Origin: an uncultured delta proteobacterium
GTDB lineage: Bacteria; Myxococcota_A; Polyangia; Polyangiales; Polyangiaceae
NCBI GenBank assembly: GCA_963782055.1
Contig: CAWAIF010000003.1
Coordinates: forward strand, 6,759,948-6,823,947
Length of the DNA stretch: 64,000 nucleotides
Direction: 5' to 3'
In this document: positions 56,952 through 64,000 of the stretch, piece after piece
How the letters are laid out: each line of letters opens with the position of its first letter
Position numbering within the stretch: position 1 is the stretch's first letter
Made by a program: the position numbers and the translations under genes
Notes under the pieces: model-generated
What the model was told of the DNA's origin: nothing
Seen by the model: the letters and a program-made list of their open reading frames with translations, nothing else
The model's database searches: none

Positions 56952-57750
56952 TCACATCTCGACCTTCAGCCCCTTCGCGATCGCGGGCTGGAGCATCGAG
57001 TAGTTGGTGATGGGCGTGCCCTGGATGTTCAGGTTCTTCAGTCCCTTGGCGCCCTTGAGCGGGGTCAGGTCCTTGATGGCGGTGTTCTGGATGCTCACCT
57101 TCTGCAGCTTCGTCAGGCCCGCCAGCGGCGTCAGATCGGTGATGGGGGTGTCGTCGAGCGAGAGCTCCGTCAGGTCCCCCATCTTGGCGATGGGGGTGAG
57201 GTCGGTCACCTGCGTGTGAGACAGGTCCAGCCTGTCCATGTGCACCAGCTTCTCCAGCGGCTTGATGTTGGAGACCTTGTTGCCCGTCGCGCGCAGGGAG
57301 ACCATCGTCGTCAGGTCGGCGATGGGCTCGAGGTCGTCCAGGCCGCCCTGACCGATGAACAGGTCGTGGATGCCTGTGAACTTGGGCATCAGGCACGGGT
57401 TCAGCTCGTCGATCGGACCGTACTTGGTGAGGTTGAGCGACTTGATGGTCTTCAGCTCGCCCATGCCGATCGCGCCCTTCGGCTTCTGCAGCTTGAGGCG
57501 GACCTCCTTCTCGAGCGCATCGTCGCCCTCGAAGTCGACGACCTGCGTGCTGTCGCACTTCCACTCCTTCTTCTTCGGCGGAGGCGGCAGGGGCGGCGGC
57601 GTGTCGACCGCTGCCGCGCTGGCCGCGGCGGCCGCGGCGGCTGCGGCCGCGGAGGCCGCGGAGGCCGCCGGGTCGACCGTCGCCTTCTTGTCGTCGTCAC
57701 AACCCAGCACCGTCGCCGCCGCGATGCAGATCAGGAGGAGCGCACGCTTC
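56952..57750 (-). CDS. Leucine-rich-repeat lipoprotein
   Basis: MKRALLLICIAAATVLGC. poly-Ala/Pro linker. Repeated LxxLxLxxTxIxDLTPL units. The ORF-track extension to 59402 is rejected. Confidence 0.7.
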
Positions 57751-57833
57751 ATGGGCGCCCATCCTAAACCCAAAGGGGCGACCCCGAGCAAGAGACCTAG
57801 GCGGCGGCAAGGTGTGTCATTCTCCGCCCCGTC

Positions 57834-59177
57834 GTGACCCAGTCTCAGCCGGAGCCCCTGCGCGACGAGAGGCTGCGCGCCGTCAGTCCACTCGCCCTTC
57901 GGGCCGTCGGCCCGCGCCAGGCGCGGGACCTCAGCCGGCGTGCGGTGGTCGCGGCGTGGGCGCGGCGGCGCCCGCTTCGCAGCGCGCCGGACATCGTGGT
58001 GATCGTGGGGCTGATGCTGCTCGCGGGTCACGGCGCGTGGCGCGCCGCGTCGGTGGCCGCGGTCTTCCTCGTCGTCCTCGCGGTGAAGGTCGGCACCGCG
58101 CGCCGCGCGACCCGAGGACTGGCGACCACGCGCTCGGTGCTGGCGTCGCACGTGGTCTCCCTCCTCGGCCATGGCGTCGCGGCGGCGCTCACCGGCGGTA
58201 TCCTCAGCCCGCTCGTCCCGGGCGTGCTCGCCCACGCGGCCGCCGGGCTCATCGTCTTCGGCCGCGGCGACGAGAGCCGCGCGTCCATCGGCGTCTCCGC
58301 CGCGCTGATCGTGGCGCTGTGCTTCGTCCCGCGCGCCTGGGCCTACCCGGCGATGACGAGCGTCTTCTACGTGCTGCTGCTGGCGTACTCGGTCCTCTCC
58401 GCCCTGGTGACGATGCGCGCCGTGGCCAACGACGTGAGCGACGCCTACCGCCAGGCGCGCGCCGCGGCCGACCGCCTGCGCGAGGAGGTGCTGCTGGCGG
58501 CGAGCGAGCGCGCCAGCCGGCTGGAGACCATCAGCTCGAAGGTCGCCCACGAGCTGAAGAACCCGCTCTCGGCCATCAAGGGCCTGCTCAAGCTCGTGGA
58601 CCGCAGCCCCGGGGACGACAAGACACACGAGCGGCTGGACGTGATGCAGCGGGAGGTCGCCCGGATGGAGACCATCCTGCGCGACTACCTCTCCTTCTCG
58701 CGGCCGCTGGAGGACCTGCGCACCCAGCCGGTGGAGCTGGGGGTGCTCTGCGACGACGTCATCGCGGTGCTGGAGGCGCGCGCGGAGGCCGCGGGCGTGA
58801 ACCTCGCGCGGGGGCCATCGACGTGGACCATCGTCGGGGACCCGCGGCGCCTCAAGGAGGCGTTGCTCAACCTCGTCGGCAACGCGGTGGACGCCACGCC
58901 GGCGGGCGGCAGCGTGCGCGTCACGGTGCGCGAGCAGGACGGCGGCGCGCGCATCGTCATCGAGGACAGCGGCAAGGGCATGAGCGAGCAGGAGCTGCAG
59001 CGCCTCGGCACCCCCTTCTTCACCACGCGCGAGGGAGGCACCGGCCTGGGCGTGGTGCTGGCGAGGGCCATCGTCACCCAGCACGGCGGCACGCTCGACT
59101 ACGAGAGCGAGCTGGGGAAGGGGACGCGGGCAATCATCCGCCTCCCCTTCCGCCCGAGCCCTCCGCCCGACGCGTAG
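57834..59177 (+). CDS. Membrane sensor histidine kinase
   Basis: Multiple TM helices. H-box KVAHELKNPLSAI. N/G boxes (NLVGNAVDA, GTGLGV). Confidence 0.8.
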   Translation: MTQSQPEPLRDERLRAVSPLALRAVGPRQARDLSRRAVVAAWARRRPLRSAPDIVVIVGLMLLAGHGAWRAASVAAVFLVVLAVKVGTARRATRGLATTRSVLASHVVSLLGHGVAAALTGGILSPLVPGVLAHAAAGLIVFGRGDESRASIGVSAALIVALCFVPRAWAYPAMTSVFYVLLLAYSVLSALVTMRAVANDVSDAYRQARAAADRLREEVLLAASERASRLETISSKVAHELKNPLSAIKGLLKLVDRSPGDDKTHERLDVMQREVARMETILRDYLSFSRPLEDLRTQPVELGVLCDDVIAVLEARAEAAGVNLARGPSTWTIVGDPRRLKEALLNLVGNAVDATPAGGSVRVTVREQDGGARIVIEDSGKGMSEQELQRLGTPFFTTREGGTGLGVVLARAIVTQHGGTLDYESELGKGTRAIIRLPFRPSPPPDA

Positions 59178-59481
59178 CGGAGGGACCGCGTGGGGAGCGA
59201 CCCCGCCCAGTTCACATCGTCTCAGTCCGCACCTTGATGCTGACCACCTGGTAAAGCCGCTTCGTCGCGGGGAATGGGCTGCGGGACATCCGCGAGCAGA
59301 ATCCGGACGCCGTGCCGGTCGAGACCACTGCGCATGCGATGCCGCAAGATTCTTTGCGGCGGTGCGCGTCCAGGAGGTGGCGCGCCCACACACCCCGACC
59401 ACAACTGCAATCTATCGACGACGTATATTGACAAGCCACGCTTCCTCGTCCAGGGTGGCTCGGGCGAGGAGGCCGCCATGA

Positions 59482-59505
59482 GCAAGCAAGCAAGCAAGCA
59501 AGCAA
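59482..59505 (+). repeat. (GCAA)6 tetranucleotide tract between a strong SD+ATG (59465-59480) and the sedolisin reading frame
   Basis: Counted directly: GCAA x6, then GCG. GAGGAGG lies 6 nt upstream of ATG 59478. Confidence 0.8.
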
Positions 59506-59577
59506 GCGCAAGTTTCGGACCTTGGGGGCCGGCCTTGTCCAGCTCCAGGCAACGCGCGCCGGCGCTCCCCGCCCATC

Positions 59578-62500
59578 GTGCTGCTGCTTCTCACGATCGT
59601 GGTCGCGCTTGCCTGCAACGCGGCGCCGCCGGTCGTAGGCGTCTCCTCCGCCCCGCTCCTGCCGCTGCCGAACGTGCTCCTCGCGGAGAAGAAGCTCACC
59701 ATCGGCCCGTACACCAGCGTCTCCGGTGGTGACGTCGTCGTGCGCCAGATCGAGCCGCTGCCGCCCGATGGGCCGGCCCAGCTTGTCATCGGCAACGCGG
59801 CCCACGTCGGCACCGACGCGGGGTGCACCGCCAGCGACAACCTCATCGCGACCTCGGTCACCGTCGGCTCGGGCGCGTGCGCGGGCGATCTCCAGACCAG
59901 CTCCCTCACCAACAATGGCGGCACCGTCGGCTCGCAGTCGGCCTTCCCGGTCGCGCCGCTCCCTCCGCTCGCCATCGCGCCGCTTCCCGTGACCGGCGCC
60001 GTGGTCGATGTGGCGTCCAACACGACGCTCGCGCTCGCGCCGGGCACCTACGGTGACGTGCGCGTCCGTCACGGCGCCACGCTCCAGCTGTCCACGGGCA
60101 GCTACCAGCTCGCGAGCGTGCACATCGACGACACGGGGACCCTCACGACGACCGCAGCTGCGGTGAGCGTGACCGTCTCGGGGGATTTCGTGACCGGCCG
60201 GAATGCGATCGTACAACCAGGGGCGAGCCTGACGGCGGGCGAGCTCGATATCACCGCGGGCGGCACGCACGCCGACGTCGGTCGTAGCTCGACGATCACG
60301 GCCGTCCTCACCGCCCCGCGCGCGACCCTCACGCTGGAGCAGAGCGTCGTCGCCACGGGCGCGTTTGCCGGGTTCAACATCACCGTTGGCGATCACGTGA
60401 CGGTCACCTTCCAGGACGGGTTGCCGCAAGCTCCGGTGGGCACCCAGCTCCTGTCCGGATACTACGGGCAAAAGCTCGACGGCTCGTTCGGGGCCACGAG
60501 CCCGGTCCCGGCGGCCACCAACGTGGTGATAGACGTCGGTCTCCCGCTTCGCAACGCCGCCGCGCTGCAGACGTTCCTGCACGACGTCTCGGATCCGACG
60601 AGCCCGACGTTCCGCCAGTTCATCTCGCCGGCCACCTTCGACTCGCTGTATGGAGCGACGGCCGACGACTACGCGCTCTTGCTCCGATGGGCAGGCGACA
60701 ACGGGCTCATCGTCCTTCGCACTTTTCCCGACAACCTACTCGTCACGTTGAGCGGGACGGCGGCGCAGGTCGAGCACGCGCTCTATACCAACCTGATCTA
60801 CCGGGAGGATGCGTCGGGCGCGCAGACCTTCGTCGCCGTTGACCGGGAGCCCTCCCTGGATCTGACACCGACGGTGGACTGGGTCGGCGGAGTGAACGAC
60901 TGGAGCCCGGTGACCTACTATTCCGACTGTGAATGGACTGCCTCGCCGTTCGGGAGCGACGACGTGACCGGACAGGGGCTCGGTCCCTGGGAGTTCACGA
61001 CGGAGATCCCGGCGATGACCGCGAACGACATCCGCGAGGCGTACCTGGGCGTGAACACGGGCTGCTCGCCGCTCACCGGCGCGGGCGAGACCGTCGGGAT
61101 CCTGGAGGGCAACACCTTCAACCAGAGCGACATCGATGCCTACGTCGCGGCCCAGTCCGCCGACGTCACCATCACGTCGAACCCGCCGACGCTCGTTGAT
61201 ATCGGAGGGCTCGATGCAGTTCAGGGCGAGGCAACGCTCGACATCCAGGCCGTGATGGCGATGGCGCCCGAGGCGCACATCATCATGTACCGCGGCTCAC
61301 AGGTCGGCCATGAGTACGATGACACGTTGATGCAGGTCGCGACCGACAACCTGGTGACGGTCTTCACCAGCTCACTGGCCTACGCGGCCAACACGAAGAC
61401 CCAGCAGGCTCTCGAGAAGATGGCCTCCCAGGGCATCAGCGTCTTCCAGGCCGCGGGCGACTCCGGGGACGAAGGCGATCCGGACGGGGAGACCAACAAC
61501 CGGAAGATGGATAATCAGACGCTGGTCGGAGGCACCGAGCTCACGCTCGGGCCGGTGGCGCAGACCGGGACGCGCGATGGCAAGCCCATCTATACGTACA
61601 CGCCGCCCTACCACCTGAACGAGACGACGTGGAACCAGGGCTGCTCCGCCTTCACGGTGCTCGGAGGCAGCCAGGGGATAGTCCGAAACCCCCTTGCGTC
61701 CGACATCACGGGCGGCGGCATCATGGATGGCGTCGGGCTGGGCACACCCTGCTTTGACCCCGCCAACGTGCTCTGCGGACCGATCGCCATCCCGGACTAC
61801 CAGGCCAACACGCCCGGCGTGGTCACCGGGCCGCTCAGCTTCAACCAGGACGGCAGCGTGGACGTCCACGGGGGGAATGGGGCCTCGGCCTCGTTCCGGA
61901 ACTTCCCGGACGTGGCCATCAGCGCCGCCGGGTTCCAGCACATCATCACGCCAGACGGTGGTTCGCAGCGGGTTGTGTCCATCTCTGGCACGAGCCTCTC
62001 GGCGCCTCTATGGGCAGGTTTCGCCGCCCTCGCCGCCCAGCGCGCGCATAAACGCAATGTCCTCCCACCGGGCATGGGCCTCGGCTTCCTCAACCGCACG
62101 CTCTACGCCATCGGCGGGACGAAGGGGCAATCGCAGGATCTTTACACCCAGTCCTTCCACGACATCGCGGACGGCGTGAACAACCAGGGCGACGACGCCG
62201 TGACCACCTTCCCCAACAACCAGGGCCTCGGGCATGCGTCGGTCGTCGGGTACGATCTCACGACGGGCTGGGGCTCGCCGACCTGCGGGCTGCTGGATCT
62301 GATCAGCTCCAGCACGCCGCTGAGCCCACAGGTCACCTTCAGCTCCCTCGTTGCGCACGTCTCCAGCGGCACGGACGGCGTCAACGATGAGAGTTCGATT
62401 CAGCTCACCCTTCACGTAAACGACGTGGTGTGGAACTTTCCGCTGAAGCCCCAGGCGGACGTAGGGTGGAAGGATGGGGGGACCGCGCACGTCTTCTCCT

Positions 62501-63291
62501 TCGCGCTGCCGATGCCCATCACCCAGGACAACGTCACGGGGGCGGAGCTGACGCTCTTCCAGAACGGCCAGGGCGGCATCACCGCCGACAACTGGGACGT
62601 GGGCGGCCTGCAGGTGGAGCTCACGGGCGCGAGCGATCCCAACGTCTCCTCCGCGTGTACCCTCGACCTCAGCGGGAACGGGGACTGCGACCACACCCAG
62701 CCCAGCTGCAACCCCAACGGGACGCTCGCCGACACCAGCGACACAGGCGTCGTGCGGCTGAGCGAGAACGACGGGTGCGGGACGCTGCCGTGCTCCAGCG
62801 GGCAGGGGGGCATCGTGTTCTTCGGGAGCGATCCGCTGAACGGGCGATGCCCGGCGTTCGCCGGAACCGGCGCGATCACCCAGTTCGACCACCTGGAGTT
62901 CGTGATCGGCACGGGCGACGACGATCTGCGCGCGGATAGTGAGCTCGACTACGCCGTGTTCGACTCGAATAATGGGCCGCTAGCGAACGGGGCACTTCAC
63001 ATGGCCAATTCGGAGCCGCTCTGGGACAACTACACTGAGCACGGCGCGCCCGCTCTCGCGATGCCCATCTCGCCCATGAACGTAGCCGATGCGAGTACCA
63101 TCCGGCTCCAGTTCACGCCCGGCGGTGGCGTCGACGAGTGGCACATGGAGTCGCTGCAGATCTACGGGCGTTCCGACAATAGCGAGGCGGGCCAGTACGT
63201 GTGCCTCTTCAAGGGCAACGGTACTCCCGAGCAAGTGTTCAACAGCGGGAGCAGCACGCTTACCGTGACGGTCGGCTCCGGCTGCCCTTGA
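59578..63291 (+). CDS. Secreted sedolisin (S53) family serine peptidase with pro-kumamolisin-type activation domain and C-terminal beta-rich extension
   Basis: Pro-domain (...FRQFISPATFDSLYGAT...LIVL...VTLSGT). Catalytic-domain blocks incl. ...ATLDIQAVMAMAP... and Ser motif SGTSLSAPLWAGFAALA. Annotated start is GTG 59578, which gives a signal peptide without a charged n-region. Confidence 0.8.
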   Translation: MLLLLTIVVALACNAAPPVVGVSSAPLLPLPNVLLAEKKLTIGPYTSVSGGDVVVRQIEPLPPDGPAQLVIGNAAHVGTDAGCTASDNLIATSVTVGSGACAGDLQTSSLTNNGGTVGSQSAFPVAPLPPLAIAPLPVTGAVVDVASNTTLALAPGTYGDVRVRHGATLQLSTGSYQLASVHIDDTGTLTTTAAAVSVTVSGDFVTGRNAIVQPGASLTAGELDITAGGTHADVGRSSTITAVLTAPRATLTLEQSVVATGAFAGFNITVGDHVTVTFQDGLPQAPVGTQLLSGYYGQKLDGSFGATSPVPAATNVVIDVGLPLRNAAALQTFLHDVSDPTSPTFRQFISPATFDSLYGATADDYALLLRWAGDNGLIVLRTFPDNLLVTLSGTAAQVEHALYTNLIYREDASGAQTFVAVDREPSLDLTPTVDWVGGVNDWSPVTYYSDCEWTASPFGSDDVTGQGLGPWEFTTEIPAMTANDIREAYLGVNTGCSPLTGAGETVGILEGNTFNQSDIDAYVAAQSADVTITSNPPTLVDIGGLDAVQGEATLDIQAVMAMAPEAHIIMYRGSQVGHEYDDTLMQVATDNLVTVFTSSLAYAANTKTQQALEKMASQGISVFQAAGDSGDEGDPDGETNNRKMDNQTLVGGTELTLGPVAQTGTRDGKPIYTYTPPYHLNETTWNQGCSAFTVLGGSQGIVRNPLASDITGGGIMDGVGLGTPCFDPANVLCGPIAIPDYQANTPGVVTGPLSFNQDGSVDVHGGNGASASFRNFPDVAISAAGFQHIITPDGGSQRVVSISGTSLSAPLWAGFAALAAQRAHKRNVLPPGMGLGFLNRTLYAIGGTKGQSQDLYTQSFHDIADGVNNQGDDAVTTFPNNQGLGHASVVGYDLTTGWGSPTCGLLDLISSSTPLSPQVTFSSLVAHVSSGTDGVNDESSIQLTLHVNDVVWNFPLKPQADVGWKDGGTAHVFSFALPMPITQDNVTGAELTLFQNGQGGITADNWDVGGLQVELTGASDPNVSSACTLDLSGNGDCDHTQPSCNPNGTLADTSDTGVVRLSENDGCGTLPCSSGQGGIVFFGSDPLNGRCPAFAGTGAITQFDHLEFVIGTGDDDLRADSELDYAVFDSNNGPLANGALHMANSEPLWDNYTEHGAPALAMPISPMNVADASTIRLQFTPGGGVDEWHMESLQIYGRSDNSEAGQYVCLFKGNGTPEQVFNSGSSTLTVTVGSGCP

Positions 63292-63299
63292 GCGGCGAA

Positions 63300-63653
63300 A
63301 TGTCGTGCCCGAACCGATGGCTCCACCCCGTCTATTGCGCGATCGCTTCAGTCGCGCTTGTGGCGTGTGGTGGGCGGACGGACCTTGGTCACGACCAGCT
63401 TCATGACGCCGGCGACGTGCTCGATGGCGGCGCCCCTGTGGACGCGGCGGTGCCCGACGTCGTCGCCACACCCTACTGCGCCACGCGCGTAGGCCCCGTG
63501 CCGTCCTGCGACGCAGGTGCCGACGCAGGGTACGTCATGCGATGCATCAAGGGAACAGAGTGTCGGTTATTCTTGGGTGTATGGGGTTGCTGTTACCCGA
63601 ATTACAGGGGCTGTGTCAACGCTACTCCTACGGATGCGCCAGGTTGTCAATGA
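63300..63653 (+). CDS. Cys-rich small lipoprotein
   Basis: MSCPNRWLHPVYCAIASVALVACGG. Confidence 0.5.
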   Translation: MSCPNRWLHPVYCAIASVALVACGGRTDLGHDQLHDAGDVLDGGAPVDAAVPDVVATPYCATRVGPVPSCDAGADAGYVMRCIKGTECRLFLGVWGCCYPNYRGCVNATPTDAPGCQ

Positions 63654-63877
63654 TGGCGGCGAGCACGAGCGTAGCCCCGGGTGGGACCGTCCAGCTCCAG
63701 TTCACGCCGGGTGGCGGCGTCGACGAGTGGCACATGGAGTCGCTGCAGGTCTACGGGCGCTCGGATGCCGAATCGGGCCAGTACGTCTGTCTTTTCAAGG
63801 GCAATGGCACTCCAGAGCAAGTGTTCAACAGCGGAAGCACCACGCTCACCGTGACGGTCGGCACCGGCTGCCCCTGA
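63650..63877 (+). CDS. Stand-alone copy (75 aa) of the sedolisin C-terminal domain (...QLQFTPGGGVDEWHMESLQVYGRSD...YVCLFKGNGTPEQVFNSGSTTLTVTVGTGCP)
   Basis: About 85% aa identity to sedolisin residues about 1165-1237. ATG overlaps the upstream TGA (ATGA). Confidence 0.5.
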   Translation: MMAASTSVAPGGTVQLQFTPGGGVDEWHMESLQVYGRSDAESGQYVCLFKGNGTPEQVFNSGSTTLTVTVGTGCP

Positions 63878-63892
63878 GCCCGACGATGTCGA

Positions 63893-64000
63893 ACCGCGAC
63901 TGGAAGCTAGCGGCGCACCCCATCTGTCGTGCGATCGTGGCAGTTGCACTTGCCGTATGTGCATGTGGCGGCCGGACAGATCTTGGCCGCGGCGAGGTTG
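63893..64000 (+). CDS. Second copy of the small lipoprotein gene (partial, runs off window)
   Basis: MSNRDWKLAAHPICRAIVAVALAVCACGGRTDLG parallels 63300-63653. Confidence 0.4.

Follow-up and report, generated by a model that had tools for sequence, protein, structure and literature searches.

The 3′ end of a 64,000-nucleotide stretch of DNA from an uncultured delta proteobacterium of the Polyangiaceae (contig CAWAIF010000003.1; the whole stretch is referred to here as the window) carries a sedolisin-type protease gene followed by two small lipoprotein genes and, between these two, a 75-residue open reading frame (ORF) that repeats the tail of the protease. The protease gene spans 59578-63291 on the + strand and encodes a product of 1237 amino acids (aa) that is identical to representative P0002. 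The initial annotation had called this product a sedolisin, and profile matches bear out the assignment, with Pro-kuma_activ (PF09286) detected at E = 7e-19 and 68.9 bits (cut-off of 23.5) and Peptidase_S8 (PF00082) at E = 4.4e-7 and 30 bits (cut-off of 21.8). The motifs GEATLD, GDSGD (as AAGDSGD), and SGTS, which supply the catalytic Glu/Asp/Ser and the oxyanion Asp, can also be read in the translation by inspection. Judged by its sequence, the product is a member of the sedolisin (S53) family with a putative protease activity. Its layout consists of an N-terminal DUF7305-like region (for which the Pfam match is weak), a pro-kumamolisin activation domain, the catalytic domain, and two C-terminal PLAT-like domains. 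The activation domain, the subtilase-fold catalytic domain, and the E/D/S motifs are shared with the sedolisins and kumamolisins of MEROPS family S53. In contrast to those enzymes, the protein in the window is far longer and has the DUF7305-like region at its N-terminus, a lipoprotein-type leader, and the two PLAT-like domains at its C-terminus. A text search of the literature that combined sedolisin with PLAT domain returned no paper, and to our knowledge a paired lipoprotein gene is no described feature of the sedolisin family. An NCBIfam scan gave no matches, a PDB sequence search with the C-terminal 340 aa of the sedolisin returned chance matches only, and scans of 59000-64000 for Rfam families, promoters, and terminators turned up nothing of relevance.

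Eight nucleotides past the sedolisin stop codon begins the first lipoprotein gene (63300-63653, + strand), which encodes 117 aa with the lipobox LVAC (Cys23), the mature N-terminus CGGRTDLG, and eight Cys residues in the mature protein. The stop codon of this gene is overlapped by the ATG of the 75-aa ORF (63650-63877, + strand) in the form of ATGA, and a second 8-nt spacer separates the ORF from the second lipoprotein gene (63886-64000, + strand), whose first 38 codons fall within the window. The initial annotation had placed the start of this second lipoprotein at 63893; its ATG is at 63886. Read by eye, both leaders show the lipobox pattern, with ...VALVAC preceding GGRTDLG in lipoprotein 1 and ...AVCAC preceding GGRTDLG in lipoprotein 2, and no strong Shine-Dalgarno sequence was seen by eye before the lipoprotein ATGs. 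Lipoprotein gene 2 looks functional, because its lipobox has been kept and CGGRTDLG is identical between the two lipoproteins despite five synonymous changes. As a separate observation, the Cys-rich 3′ third of lipoprotein gene 1 (63520-63650) has a GC content of ~52% versus 70% for the genome. None of the frames of this segment gives a clear signal from GC at third codon positions (GC3), and an alternative frame is open across it, from 63542 to 63877.

Together, these genes form a head-to-tail direct repeat with a period of 589 bp, as determined by repeat search and local alignment. Each repeat unit is made up of the last 71 sedolisin codons, or their copy, and a small lipoprotein gene. Unit 1 (63075-63663, + strand) is 589 bp in length and contains the sedolisin 3′ end, the 8-nt spacer, lipoprotein gene 1, and 10 more nt, and unit 2 (63664-64000, + strand) is cut by the window end; two units are seen within the window, the second one incomplete. 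The repeat search yielded two in-register blocks, one pairing 63075-63176 with 63664-63765 (83% identity, spacing of 589) and the other pairing 63183-63293 with 63769-63879 (88% identity, spacing of 586). By local alignment, the left edge of the homology falls at 63075/63664, and in-register identity 5′ of this edge is ~30%, which is what chance would give at this composition. Since unit 2 begins exactly at the end of unit 1, the arrangement is a head-to-tail tandem duplication of a 589-bp unit, and it has the direct copies, constant period (589/586 bp), and collinear content of a tandem segmental duplication. The initial annotation had described a diverged tandem repeat of the protease tail and a lipoprotein, and this description stands far beyond chance on the strength of the two blocks and a tblastn match of the 75-aa ORF to the sedolisin 3′ end (E = 4.5e-38). 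Its estimate of about 85-88% identity between the copies held for the protease-tail part (85% at the DNA level, 79% at the amino-acid level) but not for the remainder, as the spacer retains 2 of 8 bases and the visible lipoprotein part is 69% identical in DNA with two 6-nt indels. Runs of ~30 nt are identical between the copies.

The repeated part of the protease belongs to the second of its two PLAT-like domains. Domain A covers residues 912-1067 (62311-62778, + strand) according to the jackhmmer domain table and matches domain B as an internal repeat (blastp, E = 1e-4); domain B covers residues 1093-1237 (62854-63288, + strand), and the repeat includes no more of it than the last 71 codons. 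An exhaustive HMMER search of 1.84 billion representatives with the C-terminal 340 aa of the sedolisin (E ≤ 1e-3) found at least 100 relatives, including the sedolisin of the window (P0002) and the 75-aa ORF (P0009). In the jackhmmer domain table for the 100 matches listed, complete copies of the domain have ~120-180 aa, mostly 135-145, and extend over approximately model positions 5-145. The domain is usually found in tandem (two to six copies) and is often C-terminal among these relatives. Its carriers are sedolisins, proteins that also bear an M19 peptidase domain, and free-standing proteins with a signal peptide, such as P0093. The initial annotation had suggested searching for it as a C-terminal extension on other secreted proteins of the genome, and among the relatives it does occur in that position on sedolisins. 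A 24-sequence family alignment shows T20, D23, W96, and C117 to be invariant and D94 and C144 to be conserved at 90% or more, for a signature of TGxDDLR … DxW … C … GC(P) with a conserved Cys pair. The two conserved Cys residues pointed out in the initial annotation are thus family-wide features, C117 without exception and C144 at that level of conservation.

An AlphaFold2 (AF2) model of domain B, built from a three-sequence alignment, is a single β-sandwich of ~10 strands with a predicted local distance difference test score (pLDDT) of 71.5 and a predicted template modeling score (pTM) of 0.73. When this model was submitted to Foldseek, the top 47 PDB matches were all lipoxygenases, alpha-toxins, lipases, or Rab6IP1, including entries 1eth and 1lpa, and the predicted sandwich can be superposed on known PLAT domains. 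In terms of sequence, PF01477 (PLAT) does not match the sedolisin of the window even at E ≤ 0.1 and passes its threshold only in relative P0021 (residues 46-135, 29.1 bits); therefore, we file the domain as PLAT-like and not as a member of PF01477. It differs from the PLAT/LH2 domains of that family (those of clostridial alpha-toxin, lipoxygenases, and pancreatic lipase) in its own signature, TGxDDLR and DxW, and in an extra C-terminal hairpin closed by the conserved Cys pair that ends in ...GCP. On this evidence, what is repeated is the second half of a disulfide-stapled, PLAT-like domain without a Pfam model of its own; apart from the PLAT match in P0021, Pfam gave no match to the domain in the members scanned. 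The PLAT-like family as a whole comprises at least 100 representatives at 50% clustering (P0003-P0201), and these include many "hypothetical" proteins of ~135 aa from sources that include Haliangium ochraceum, Leekyejoonella antrihumi, Rhodanobacteraceae, and Eremiobacteraceae. A word-index protein search with domain B returned P0001 as its sole match, and scans of genome contigs for the domain motif and the lipoprotein motif gave no matches. Two hits from a metagenome scan were treated as chance matches and set aside: the pattern in L002 falls in low-GC sequence interrupted by stop codons, and L003 is just as weak a match (both have 43% identity and the same E-value).

The lipoproteins were more difficult to place. 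Lipoprotein 1 has no homologue by word-index search and no family match in Pfam or NCBIfam, and a single-sequence AF2 model of the mature protein is unusable (pLDDT 45). Counterparts are found beside the closest relatives of the protease. At locus L004, the neighbor of the closest sedolisin orthologue (P0102) is a 115-aa lipoprotein that is 40% identical to lipoprotein 1 (E = 4e-16), with all eight mature Cys residues aligned and with native C-terminal ends of ...GCQ for lipoprotein 1 and ...GCPK for the L004 protein. This lipoprotein gene lies on the opposite strand to that of P0102, and the two genes are convergent. At locus L001, a lipoprotein start (…LLVACGARTELG…PQYC) is located 16 nt past the domain-B ORF, and the motif ACG[GA]RT is common to the L001 and L004 lipoprotein homologues. 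The distant sedolisins on L005, L006, and L007 have no such lipoprotein neighbor; C-terminal-region identity for these is 37-41% in P0006 and P0007 and 33% in P0012. The pairing of the domain with a small lipoprotein, which the initial annotation had noted within the window, is conserved in both of the most closely related loci, L001 and L004. Comparison of these loci suggests a functional link between sedolisin and lipoprotein within a narrow clade consisting of the window locus, L001, and L004. A role for the lipoprotein as a partner of the protease, whether as anchor, inhibitor, or chaperone, is plausible.

Set against the complete domain, the 75-aa ORF corresponds to a truncated copy of the second half of domain B. 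It had been described as a 75-aa copy, but homology to the sedolisin tail is limited to 71 of its 75 codons; the first five codons, including the ATG at 63650, derive from the final bases of lipoprotein gene 1 plus the 10 nt past its stop, and the start codon of the ORF therefore lies in repeat unit 1. The homology starts at residue 93 of the domain-B AF2 model and retains approximately the last five of approximately ten strands. In the jackhmmer domain table, the ORF spans model positions 75-145 only, without the invariant T20 and D23 of the TGxDDLR motif, and it has no signal peptide. A half-domain-only protein appears once among the 100 matches listed, as P0009, the 75-aa ORF itself, and the boundary of the 75-aa unit does not recur in these homologues. 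The initial annotation had proposed a mobile module that exists either fused to the protease or alone. That proposal suits the domain family, which is modular, and fails for the 75-aa unit, which is not a domain. Two ways of extending the ORF were considered and rejected. An in-frame ATG upstream at 63542 (MHQGNRVSVILGC) does not provide a lipoprotein leader, since the Cys falls at position 13 and the hydrophobic core of five residues is too short. A −1 frameshift that would fuse the ORF to lipoprotein 1 was dismissed because the ...GCQ end of lipoprotein 1 matches the native ...GCPK end of the L004 homologue, and no X XXY YYZ slippery site was seen by eye in 63540-63653.

The simplest history for this arrangement requires a single event, a partial duplication that spanned exactly 589 bp, after which a nonfunctional protease-tail fragment would have been drifting, and the perfectly head-to-tail geometry is consistent with it. 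Codon analysis argues otherwise. The core of the alignment between fragment and sedolisin tail contains 16 synonymous and 8 non-synonymous differences, for a ratio of non-synonymous to synonymous substitution rates (dN/dS) of 0.12, and over the whole homologous part dN/dS is 0.20 with a synonymous divergence (dS) of ~0.49. If one lineage had been neutral, ~0.64 of the differences would be expected to be non-synonymous. In binomial tests against this one-lineage-neutral model, the observed counts of 8 out of 24 in the core (P = 0.001-0.002) and 15 out of 33 over the homologous part (P = 0.013-0.024) are both too low. Moreover, at dS ~0.49 a neutral lineage should by itself have accumulated more than the 33 differences that were found in total. 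All three indels between the repeat units are in frame (3, 6, and 6 nt). When amino-acid changes were polarized with L001 and L004, 3 were assigned to the sedolisin lineage, 5 to the fragment lineage, and 8 were ambiguous, so there is no acceleration on the fragment lineage and no concentration of changes there. The low dN/dS, the in-frame indels, and the balanced rates indicate protein-level constraint for most of the divergence. Neutral drift of the fragment since the copies diverged is rejected, and we regard the single 589-bp event as quite improbable. Neither of two other sources of the substitution pattern was retained: gene conversion yields no synonymous bias and was rejected on that argument, and an antisense gene is improbable given that the third-position excess follows the frame on the + strand.

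Two readings fit the constraint result, one in which the fragment is a working mini-protein and another in which it belonged, until recently, to a second, complete sedolisin. We favor the latter and think it probable that the protease-lipoprotein pair was duplicated in tandem, that most of the second protease gene was then deleted, and that the 75-aa ORF is a relic. The ancestral locus would have consisted of a sedolisin gene, 8 nt, and a small Cys-rich lipoprotein gene. After tandem duplication of this pair, both copies would have diverged under purifying selection, and a later loss of most of the second sedolisin would have left its last 71 codons between lipoprotein genes 1 and 2. The outcome would be two diverged lipoprotein paralogues behind one protease, with the present function residing in the lipoproteins. 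The 75-aa ORF would at most be translated as a bridge over which ribosomes pass from the first lipoprotein gene to the second; this role, along with a single coupled transcript, is suggested by the ATGA overlap, the two 8-nt spacers, and the lack of a strong Shine-Dalgarno sequence. The order of the duplication and deletion events is one that we infer. The initial annotation had named as its own counterargument that the second copy might be just the 3′ end of a second full sedolisin. This is not the case today, as lipoprotein gene 1 sits directly upstream of the copy, and a former full paralogue that was later truncated is our preferred history despite the present arrangement.

Several considerations lead us to prefer a relic. 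Half of a β-sandwich that lacks the invariant motif is unlikely to fold, the 75-aa ORF has no signal peptide whereas the parent domain and both lipoproteins are exported, and no other half-domain-only protein is present among the relatives listed. In addition, L001 provides an example of a large internal deletion that spared both the 3′ end and the lipoprotein gene. On this Logan contig (positions 700-1870), the sedolisin orthologue is missing residues ~183-1048 and contains a frameshift, with residues 11-182 and 1049-1237 adjacent in different frames, such that the DUF7305-like N-terminus is followed by the linker and domain B and the lipoprotein gene is still next. Other points weigh against a relic. 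The L001 deletion may be an assembly artefact rather than a deletion pseudogene, and a full duplication followed by a deletion needs two events. Low dN/dS and balanced rates are equally expected of a functional 75-aa protein, the junctions, with their ATGA overlap and two preserved 8-nt spacers, look organized, and the ORF is annotated as a gene in the source genome (P0009).

A rival reading refines the docking pair raised in the initial annotation. In it, the C-terminal part of the PLAT-like domain would bind the lipoprotein, and the 75-aa copy, expressed by translational coupling, would either be the partner of lipoprotein 2 or vie with the protease for that lipoprotein. The dN/dS values of 0.12-0.20, the in-frame indels, and the balanced lineage rates are what such a pair would produce, as are the start/stop overlap and conserved spacing, and the lipoprotein adjoins the closest orthologues in both orientations. 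The fold class lends further support, since it includes pancreatic lipase (the fold matches 1eth and 1lpa), whose PLAT domain binds colipase, a small disulfide-rich protein. Against docking, the 75-aa product would be half of a β-sandwich without the N-terminal motif, it would have no signal peptide for meeting an exported domain and an exported lipoprotein, and starting from the ATG at 63542 gives it only a 13-residue pseudo-lipobox leader. A second free-standing half-domain is also missing from the 100 relatives listed. We consider a docking pair unlikely overall.

The comparison with pancreatic lipase can be carried further. By analogy only, both systems have a C-terminal PLAT-type domain on a secreted hydrolase and a separately encoded small disulfide-rich protein. 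However, the enzyme in the window is a protease, the would-be partner is lipid-anchored, and the likeness of the lipoprotein to colipase rests on analogy, not on sequence or structure. A bacterial counterpart of lipase and colipase could be imagined in which the lipid-anchored 8-Cys lipoprotein docks onto or regulates the sedolisin through its PLAT-like domain and the half-domain ORF is expressed and under selection as a part of the interface that serves lipoprotein 2. We find this extended version very doubtful.

The gene order of main gene, partner, 3′ fragment, and second partner invites another comparison, with the orphan C-terminal/immunity cassettes of contact-dependent inhibition (CDI), Rhs, and myxobacterial Sit systems. 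In an expandable array of this sort, the protease tail would act as a homology handle for unequal crossing-over, and the fragment would periodically become the real 3′ end of the protease and hence be under selection. Such an array would explain the constraint on the fragment without an independent product, and the identical runs of ~30 nt between copies are compatible with exchange. The differences are substantial, though. The C-terminal pieces here are conserved (79% identity in protein and 85% in DNA) and not polymorphic like toxin tips, the partners are exported lipoproteins, and neither a toxin domain nor any toxin or immunity family match was found in Pfam or NCBIfam. The variable toxin tip with a cognate immunity gene that defines an orphan array of a polymorphic toxin is thus not seen at this locus. 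A dS of ~0.49 also argues that exchange would be rare, and the window contains two units only. We give little credence to an expandable array, and duplication of the pair followed by truncation of the second protease remains our preferred account.

Additional features were observed around the 5′ end of the sedolisin gene. A perfect (AGCA)6.8 tetranucleotide repeat at 59481-59507, the sole repeat with a period of less than 6 nt in the window, is flanked by an ATG at 59478 on one side and by the GTG annotated as the sedolisin start on the other (region 59478-59580). Read in the frame of the sedolisin, the sequence upstream of this start contains no stop codon and codes for a proper lipoprotein leader (…ARRRSPPIVLLLLTIVVALAC), but no start codon is present in that frame. 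The ATG at 59478 is out of register with the sedolisin by one frame, and a change of +1 or −2 (AGCA) units would bring it into frame. From its sequence, the tract is a candidate for a slipped-strand phase switch or, alternatively, for an assembly error. Just upstream of the sedolisin gene are a histidine kinase-like ORF (57834-59177, + strand) and an internalin-like leucine-rich-repeat lipoprotein (MKRALLLICIAAATVLGC…; 56952-57830, − strand), and the region around the protease seems to be rich in exported lipoproteins.

As an event, the duplication is an everyday one in genome evolution, and with the free-standing copy best taken as a gene remnant, the locus should not be annotated as a new mobile module. 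A truncated fragment that still bears a clear signature of purifying selection is a caution against taking low dN/dS as proof of current function. The PLAT-like, disulfide-stapled family of ~140 aa, found on sedolisins, on M19-bearing proteins, and as many small secreted proteins, is a by-product of modest value. Another is the narrow and consistent link between one sedolisin clade and an orphan lipoprotein with eight Cys residues, which gives rise to the hypothesis that the lipoprotein may serve as a partner of the protease, either as its anchor or as its inhibitor.

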